From the NCBI GenBank assembly GCA_026991575.1, contig JALXBF010000131.1:1-47465 (forward strand): DNA of 47,465 bases, read 5' to 3'. Positions 40,432 through 41,808 of the stretch are shown piece by piece. Source of the DNA: Planctomycetota bacterium (GTDB taxonomy: Bacteria > Planctomycetota > Planctomycetia > JALXBF01). Position 1 is the stretch's first letter. Each line of letters opens with the position of its first letter. A program made the position numbers and the translations under genes. Below the pieces are notes generated by a model. It worked only from the letters and a program-made list of their open reading frames with translations. It made no database searches and was not told where the DNA came from.

Positions 40432-41808
40432 ATGAATCGGGAGACCGGCATGATCACCGACGTTCGCAGCCTGGTGCTGGAAAGCGAAGAGTTTGGCCCC
40501 GAGCAGGTTGACATCATCCGTGAGCTGCTGGCCAATGACTTGTCGGCGGTGCGTGCCCTACGCGAAGCGTCTCAGATTCTCAAGGACAAGCTTAAGAGCG
40601 CCAGCGGCGCAGCCAAACAGGACATCAAGAAACGACTTGGTATCGTCGAGTACCTGCTCGGCCGAAGTGCCACCGCCCAGTTTTACCTCATTGACGTGGG
40701 AGACGACCCGTTTGCCCTGGAATACCTGGGCAAGGCCTACATGGCCCGAGAGCAGTACCATGAGGCCGCCGCGGCCTTTGAGGCCGCCGTGAAGGTGCTT
40801 GCCAAGTCGGCAGGCTCAAAGGCCGACCAACGCGAGCAAACCAAGTTGATGACGATGAAGCTCTACGCTGCCGGTGCCCACCGCCTGGCCGGTGACCGGG
40901 ACCAGGCATGGAAGCTGCTTAAGTCGGTGGAAAACGCAGCAGGGGAGCTGGCCGAGTACCACTACCAGAAAGGATGTCTGCTTGCAGATGAGGGTGATCG
41001 AATGGAGGCGCTCAAGGAGCTGGAGCATGCGCTGACGCTTGATCCGCATCACCCCGAAGCTCTCTTCCACGCCGCTTATATCCACGACCTCTACGGCAAC
41101 GACGAACTTGCCCAGGAGCTCTACGAGCGGTGCGTCTCGCGTGCGCCGGTTCACATGGGCGCGCTGATTAACCTGGGGATCCTCTATGAGGACAAAGGTG
41201 AGTACGCCCGGGCCGCCCGCTGTTTCCGCCGTGTGCTAAACATCTATCCGACCAATGGACGAGCTCGGCTCTTCTTCCGGGACGCCGTTGCGGCCGAATC
41301 GGCCGAGACCGAAGAAACTCCCGAGACGAAGCGTCGGCTGGACCGCACCCAGCAACTGCTCAATCGGCCAGTGCACGAACTGGAATTGTCCGCTCGAGCG
41401 CGGCACTGTCTGGAGGACCTGGGGGTTGAGACGATCGGGGACCTGGTCGCGCTCAGCGAGCAAGACCTCATGAAGGCGAAGAACTTCGGCGACACATCGC
41501 TGGCTGAGATCAAAGAGCAACTGCAGCGGCTGGGATTGTCGTTGGGCATGGCGCCGGCGCGGAAGGAGGTTCGACGGGAACAGGAGCCACAGATTGATCC
41601 GCAGCTTCTGAGCAAGCCGGTCAGTGAGCTGAACGTCTCTGGCCGCGTTCGCCGCTGCCTGGAGAAACTCAACATCGAGACCGTCGGCCAGCTGATCGAG
41701 TACACGCCACAGCAACTCCTGGCCGTCAAGAACTTCGGCACGACATCGCTGAGGGAACTCCAGGAAGAGTTGGCCCGATACGGGCTCGCATTGAAAACGG
41801 GCAAGTGA
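40432..41808 (+). CDS. TPR-repeat protein with two C-terminal RNA polymerase alpha-CTD-like domains
   Basis: TPR helices ([23 protein letters not shown]). Repeats [19 protein letters not shown]...[24 protein letters not shown] and [19 protein letters not shown]...[11 protein letters not shown]. No alpha-NTD. Confidence 0.88.

Follow-up and report, generated by a model that had tools for sequence, protein, structure and literature searches.

The core RNA polymerase is nearly invariant across bacteria, and a few lineage-specific general factors (CarD, RbpA, GrgA) have altered the understanding of transcription in their groups. In other phyla, the stabilisation of promoter complexes is the job of CarD or RbpA, and to our knowledge none of CarD, RbpA, GcrA and GrgA uses spare copies of the C-terminal domain of the RNA polymerase alpha subunit (alpha-CTD). 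The protein described here, P0001, would resemble these four factors in the role proposed for it below by analogy, namely that of a broadly required, polymerase-docked, DNA-touching protein of one lineage, and it gives no match to the CarD family (PF02559). Its likeness to the alpha-CTD of RpoA (PF03118; PDB 1COO, 1LB2, 2JZB) consists of two Pfam stretches in which R265, N294, G296 and S299 are kept, but these are tandem copies about 22 residues apart and are fused to tetratricopeptide repeats (TPRs), not to the assembly domain. With full RpoA (TIGR02027) it has the CTD alone in common, scoring 133.4 bits against a cut-off of 227.8, and rpoA models, all of which stay under their cut-offs, match it only at profile positions above about 213. 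Weak matches in the CTD region, far below cut-off, are found to BREX PglW (NF033442), the beta'-fused CTD (PRK14906) and the stand-alone PRK07758, which have other partner domains and none of which is a TPR protein with two CTDs, and the TPR part resembles APC6/APC3, TTC7B, O-GlcNAc transferase and consensus TPR in a generic way that says nothing on function.

The window, the whole stretch of 47,465 nucleotides analysed here, is contig JALXBF010000131.1 of a Planctomycetota bacterium, and its open reading frame at 40432-41808 on the plus strand encodes the 458-residue P0001 within the following features:

40364..40392, plus strand: candidate sigma70-type promoter, TTGCGC (40364-40369), a 17-nt spacer and TATAAT (40387-40392) (sequence; TATAAT scarce genome-wide and TTG-enriched at 16-18 nt)
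40421..40424, plus strand: candidate ribosome-binding site GGAG, 7 nt before the ATG (sequence; putative role)
40432..41808, plus strand: gene for the protein of TPRs and two alpha-CTDs, P0001 (open reading frame, Pfam and NCBIfam matches, family profile)
40432..41256, plus strand: TPR superhelix, residues 1-275 (Pfam, AlphaFold model, fold matches, conservation)
41257..41343, plus strand: capping and linker helices with conserved R277, D284 and SxxMxYDE motif (model, conservation)
41344..41526, plus strand: alpha-CTD 1, R322=R265, N351=N294, G353=G296, S356=S299 (PF03118, E 4.6e-22)
41596..41775, plus strand: alpha-CTD 2, R405=R265, N434=N294, G436=G296, S439=S299 (PF03118, E 7.6e-17)
41805..42914, plus strand: tgt, with a GTGA overlap with the family gene (TIGR00430, 482 bits against a cut-off of 306.75; neighbourhood counts)
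43095..43487, plus strand: yajC, a further gene of the eroded operon, preceded by a TATAAT of its own at 43030-43035 (PF02699)
43834..46674, plus strand: secDF, at the end of the operon (PF02355, PF22599)

The sequence-only reading had described TPR repeats and two alpha-CTD-like repeats with no assembly N-terminal domain, and this is upheld by Pfam. RNA_pol_A_CTD (PF03118) matches P0001 at E 7.6e-40 over two stretches, along with many TPR models; each repeat taken singly matches this HMM, at 80.1 and 63.4 bits against a gathering threshold of 23.8, the TPR_2 score of 68.6 bits against a cut-off of 27 identifies a superhelix of 34-residue helical repeats, and the Pfam search gave no match to the assembly domains PF01000 and PF01193. 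Given that P0001 lies below the TIGR02027 cut-off and is without these assembly domains, and that a true rpoA is found elsewhere in the genome, the label 'rpoA' carried by proteins of the family is a misannotation. Neither domain is new, and databases already list the family, though under wrong names or names that give a domain only. In practice the mislabel can bring the gene into rpoA marker sets as a contaminant, and it keeps the gene out of sight when essential genes of unknown function are listed. The AlphaFold model, made from 63 sequences (mean pLDDT 93.4, pTM 0.68), is a helical repeat array to about residue 294 followed by two matching small domains, with a low-confidence link between them at residues 381-384. 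In fold searches, residues 1-294 align with TPR superhelices (Z about 20, rmsd 3.1-5.3 over 248-270 residues, 11-28% identity) and residues 280-458, in an atlas search excluding the TPR and RpoA families, gave no usable match; these searches returned generic TPR matches only and barely tested the CTDs.

Conservation rises along the TPR part, from 0.28 to 0.60. The last three TPRs hold the conserved residues F212, D219, Y231, N247, E253 and D254, of which all except D219 belong, together with R277, D284 and the linker motif, to the most constant positions of the TPR and linker region. The linker noted earlier as acidic is there, and is more exactly this copy's divergent version of a motif conserved in the family, S-x-x-M-x-Y-D-E, in which M is kept in 90%, D in 93% and E in 88% of members. 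The N-terminal residues of the TPR part, about 130 in number, are weakly conserved and are missing from members of about 320 residues, one of which belongs to a single-contig genome, and the core of the family thus consists of the last TPRs, the linker and the two CTDs. Short members without the N-terminal TPRs are L171:4664-5623, P0060, P0075 and P0076, and some members of this length no longer precede ruvA.

The family is near-universal and single-copy in the phylum. A profile of 63 members was searched against 300 other Planctomycetota genomes drawn across the phylum and found the family at E <= 1e-50 in 298, with 296 of these at E <= 1e-80 and two weaker (G047, G195); it was not detected in the other two, G105 and G006, where the matches were at the level of TPR proteins or RpoA (about 1e-20 to 1e-25). 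At E <= 1e-30 it was found in none of 122 genomes, 61 from the phylum of a Microbulbifer record and 61 from that of a Chlorobiales record; the named relatives are Planctomycetota. A separate, full rpoA with its CTD (336 residues) is present in the source genome, in the order rpsM-rpsK-rpsD-rpoA-rplQ and with 362.9 bits to TIGR02027, and this genome contains exactly three PF03118 matches. Full rpoA is kept in 42 of 42 genomes tested, and exactly three rpoA-model matches (rpoA and the two CTDs) occur in 35 of them, with an extra stand-alone CTD in 2 and, at the same threshold, two matches in 4 and one match in 1. Stand-alone alpha-CTD matches, separate from both rpoA and the family gene, lie in short frames of 155 and 109 residues (G240:C1:4088694-4088894 and G261:C39:61778-61984). 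A substitute for a lost RpoA CTD, omega or YebC was also considered and rejected: the RpoA CTD is kept, YebC is present in 5 of 5 genomes and omega is matched in 5 of 5, over the cut-off in 3.

Residues were compared with E. coli RpoA from NC_000913.3 in an alignment of 197 members, made up of 62 from the loci and 135 representatives (380-520 residues) of 150 listed, and every one of the 197 has exactly two CTDs. The retention of R265, N294, G296 and S299 had been read correctly, and across the alignment these residues are kept in 100/99%, 99/96%, 100/97% and 98/96% of CTD1/CTD2 respectively. In the available passages of PMC5101437, R265, N294 and K298 are named as the DNA-contact residues of the alpha-CTD. 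The substitutions claimed for the window copy are likewise there, N268 being H in CTD1 and R in CTD2 and GKKS being GDTS and GTTS, but the lysine changes are no sign that DNA binding has been lost: position 298 is T in 97/88% of CTD1/CTD2, the source genome's own RpoA reads GETT at the GKKS position, and K298 to T is the norm of the phylum (31 of 31 planctomycete RpoAs) and so is not a loss. Position 268 is N in 89% of CTD1 and K or R in 84% of CTD2, and the H in CTD1 is a peculiarity of the window copy, an outlier in the family. Position 267, A in E. coli, is R in 94% of CTD1 and 82% of CTD2, as against S or T in most RpoAs, and given this arginine and the K or R at 268 of CTD2, the DNA face of the family CTDs is more basic than that of the host RpoA CTD.

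CTD1 also keeps D259 (83%) and E261 (91%), which we take to be the contact with sigma region 4 in E. coli and which may instead be kept for packing within the protein, and residues 285-289, presumably the activator-contact patch, are largely kept in the family CTDs. Mean pairwise identity in the same 28 genomes is 62% for CTD1, 56% for the RpoA CTD and 46% for CTD2, and the two family CTDs are 48% and 34% identical to that of E. coli. Both copies have a hydrophobic residue at position 273 as well as R at 267, and both are separate from all RpoA CTDs on a 67-column domain tree that is of low resolution, with 3 starred branches only. The domains on this tree sort by type and not by genome, with 2 changes (the minimum possible), and the sorting fits a single ancient CTD duplication. 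The window copy itself is a long branch (1.19) and is off consensus at conserved positions, with L197 for Y, H213 for R, A291 for M, T293 for Y and H325 for N.

The promoter that had been claimed for the gene, TTGCGC-17-TATAAT, is present in the sequence as described and is not listed by a consensus promoter scanner, which returned 0 sites and missed this one because its -35 hexamer matches at only 3 of 6 positions. TATAAT occurs 68 times in the 4.96-Mb source genome, and 13 of the 68 sites have TTG 16-18 nt upstream against about 2 expected, an estimate from base composition; given this rarity and enrichment, the promoter is plausible. In the 200 nt ahead of the gene, a -10-like hexamer is present for 27 of the 62 family genes, compared with 3 of 62 control stretches inside the genes, which are coding DNA and thus an imperfect control. 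No AT-rich stretch lies upstream of the 68 TATAAT sites, not all of which are promoters (about 34% AT as against 36% genome-wide), and the sites give no support to a preference for AT-rich UP elements. Two of the 68 fall in the operon of the family gene, and the second of these, a perfect TATAAT at 43030-43035 directly ahead of yajC, suggests an internal promoter for yajC-secDF. The upstream neighbour on the same strand (38718-40181) encodes a protein of 487 residues that is hydrophobic over a stretch at its N-terminus and otherwise long, helical and coiled-coil-like; it matches no Pfam or NCBIfam family over cut-off and is absent among the conserved neighbours of family loci.

Insertion data for Planctopirus limnophila, in the available parts of PMC10632474, bear on whether the gene is required. 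Plim_0602, matched to the family by its labels and implied length (1355 bp) and not by sequence, carries COG0202 (alpha subunit) and COG0457 (TPR) and is among the essential genes by TraDIS in Fig. S3, as is the true rpoA, Plim_0499. Its insertion index of 7.38e-4 equals 1/1355, consistent with a single insertion if the gene has about 451 codons, and the neighbouring values are 0.14 for Plim_0601, 0.0012 for Plim_0603 (a Clp-type ATPase) and 0.031 for Plim_0604. The Planctopirus counterpart is thus likely to be essential, a polar effect on the essential Plim_0603 being possible; the available main text of PMC10632474 contains no passage on polar effects and no occurrence of 'RuvA'. No Clp ATPase stands beside the family gene in the loci examined here.

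Proteome data for Tuwongella immobilis, as far as the available tables of PMC8567305 extend, contain a member labelled rpoA_1 (VTS00398.1; 50 kDa, TPRs and two PF03118), whose locus tag is two and three steps from those of yajC and secD, as in the window. Its LFQ per kDa is 16.3, compared with 14.7 for RpoB, 14.6 for RpoC, 23.0 for RpoA and 8.9 for NusA, and its abundance is thus about that of RNA polymerase, LFQ not being absolute (the E. coli control gives alpha:beta of 4:1, not 2:1). The ratio between fractions S3 and S1 is 0.51, against 0.53 for RpoB, 0.52 for RpoC and 0.93 for NusA; of the 28 other proteins that gave a signal in each of the three S1 samples on one page of the table, 0 lie within 0.46-0.58 and 3 within 0.42-0.62. 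True RpoA has a ratio of 0.98, driven by one replicate, and the S2/S1 ratio of VTS00398.1 (0.05) is about 2.5- to 3-fold lower than those of RpoB (0.14) and RpoC (0.12). The family protein is not named in the available main-text passages of either PMC10632474 or PMC8567305. A gene found across its phylum as widely as a core gene, and probably essential and abundant, offers a direct handle on planctomycete transcription, for which a genetically tractable and harmless species is at hand.

Given that the family is universal, single-copy, probably essential and present at polymerase level, with alpha surfaces that are constrained beyond those of alpha itself, the simplest reading is that it works on RNA polymerase. 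The proposal we tentatively favour is a housekeeping factor docked on RNA polymerase through its TPRs, with the spare CTDs gripping promoter-upstream DNA. The conserved, largely acidic last three TPRs and the linker would bind the core enzyme or the primary sigma; the two CTDs would bind DNA mostly via the backbone, this mode being proposed because UP-like AT tracts are not evident in the 64%-GC genome; and the outcome would be the stabilisation of promoter complexes at most housekeeping promoters. Stand-alone CarD is absent from 5 of 5 genomes (G000, G219, G154, G001, G169), which counts in favour of a role like that of CarD or RbpA, and the conserved D259 and E261 of CTD1, by their presumed contact, fit initiation better than elongation. 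Against the docked factor, the usual neighbour of the gene is ruvA and not a transcription gene. The lineage-specific transcription factor of the earlier reading is thus supported indirectly, by phylum-wide occurrence, single copy, DNA-contact residues, likely essentiality and polymerase-like abundance; such a factor is likely, and it would reuse the alpha-CTD. That the protein is an extra, essential and near-stoichiometric subunit-like component, giving Planctomycetota an RNA polymerase with four alpha-CTDs instead of two, is doubtful, and if true would be a phylum-wide change to the core transcription machine hidden under the label 'rpoA'. No study of a protein with TPRs and two alpha-CTDs was found in the open-access literature; 'Planctomy' and 'tetratricopeptide' both occur 0 times in the available text of a review of alpha-like subunits from 2026 (PMC13374769), and the supplements of PMC12283558 gave 0 matches for the family.

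In the five genomes without stand-alone CarD, the CarD/TRCF domain is confined to Mfd-sized frames of about 1120 residues. The source genome has three RpoD-like sigma genes (L131, L132, L133), one of them over the TIGR02393 cut-off, and the number of strong RpoD-like matches is two or three in relatives of its class.

The same face of the alpha-CTD reportedly contacts NusA in E. coli, to go by the title of a 2011 study by Schweimer, and the conserved face therefore does not single out promoter DNA. It is accordingly conceivable, though unlikely, that the protein acts on the elongating polymerase, its spare CTDs binding NusA, whose site on the alpha-CTD overlaps the DNA site, and tuning pausing, termination or rRNA antitermination. 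In the available passages of PMC6614797, one copy of the E. coli alpha-CTD binds NusA-AR2 and the other NusA-NTD; in the source genome, NusA carries an HhH domain at its C-terminus as well as an acidic tail, and Tuwongella NusA is of the same order of abundance as VTS00398.1 (8.9 against 16.3). However, the host RpoA retains its own CTD with the same face, NusA differs in its fraction pattern, and the kept D259 and E261, in the role assumed for them, better suit initiation.

The gene neighbourhood raises a different possibility, namely that the protein binds DNA as an adaptor serving RuvABC or the rescue of replication forks, such as those that collide with transcription. Across 62 loci (60 of the best 150 places, chosen for family spread, with the window and L007), the genes found on the same strand within about 5 kb downstream are ruvA in 31, at no more than 600 bases in every case, tgt in 16, a spoIID-like gene in 14, yajC in 12, secDF in 11, ruvB in 8 and queH in 7, and the order family gene-(ruvC)-ruvA-ruvB-queH-spoIID-tgt-yajC-secDF recurs, whole or in part, in several families. 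In 23 loci ruvA is adjacent without ruvB within about 5 kb, a state for which the starred branches force as few as one origin, so that these 23 loci are not independent. The ruv genes are not essential in E. coli. In Planctopirus, ruvA, ruvB and ruvC (Plim_2446, 2430 and 2444) are all listed as essential in the available Fig. S3 of PMC10632474, which favours the adaptor, but the tags of the family gene and ruvA are far apart there (0602 and 2446) and in the source genome ruvC-ruvA lies on another contig. Moreover, in the available Tuwongella tables (PMC8567305) RuvA gave a signal in 1 of the 9 samples, 2.6e6 compared with about 8e8 for VTS00398.1 (about 300-fold lower), and RuvB in fraction S3 only, and we consider the adaptor rather improbable. 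Replacement of RuvC by the family protein was rejected, ruvC being present in 32 of 32 genomes tested.

A general nucleoid-associated protein, in which tandem HhH-type domains bind DNA non-specifically and the TPRs oligomerise or recruit independently of polymerase, would account for the high abundance, the more basic DNA face and the TATAAT sites without UP-like tracts, in a group whose nucleoids are condensed (available passages of PMC8567305). This is nevertheless improbable for two reasons: first, CTD1 keeps alpha-specific surface residues off the DNA face and is more constrained than the RpoA CTD; second, the abundance and S3/S1 ratio in the available tables track those of RpoB and RpoC. 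The decoy or anti-activator of the sequence-only reading, in which two free, TPR-gated alpha-CTDs would sequester activators or obstruct the upstream DNA, is very unlikely. In its favour, the protein lacks the assembly domain and so could not take alpha's place in the core, the presumed activator patch at 285-289 is largely kept, and the basic face of the CTDs could be masked by the acidic residues conserved in the TPRs. However, the DNA face is kept and made more basic by R at 267, the substitutions that had been taken as loss of function are common to the host RpoA, and a gene that is near-universal, single-copy and, on the available insertion and proteome data, likely essential and abundant in growing cells would be an unusual conditional inhibitor.

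A partnership with Tgt in the queuosine modification of tRNA, for which the overlap in the window and the presence of tgt and queH downstream in 16 and 7 of the 62 loci could be cited, can be set aside, since tgt directly follows the family gene in no more than 6 of the 62 loci, all of them in one starred clade of a quick tree that includes the window, and tgt (COG0343) is absent from the available essential list of PMC10632474 that holds Plim_0602. The GTGA overlap that had been read as coupling to tgt is present (41805-41808) and does not support a functional link: given that the adjacency is confined to one clade and that a longer operon is found elsewhere, it is best interpreted, from gene order, as the remnant of a ruvA-ruvB-queH-spoIID-tgt-yajC-secDF operon left by erosion after the loss of intervening genes. 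In one starred clade, 4 of 6 loci (L084, L089, L092, L095) have a prepilin peptidase (A24) gene beside that of the family.
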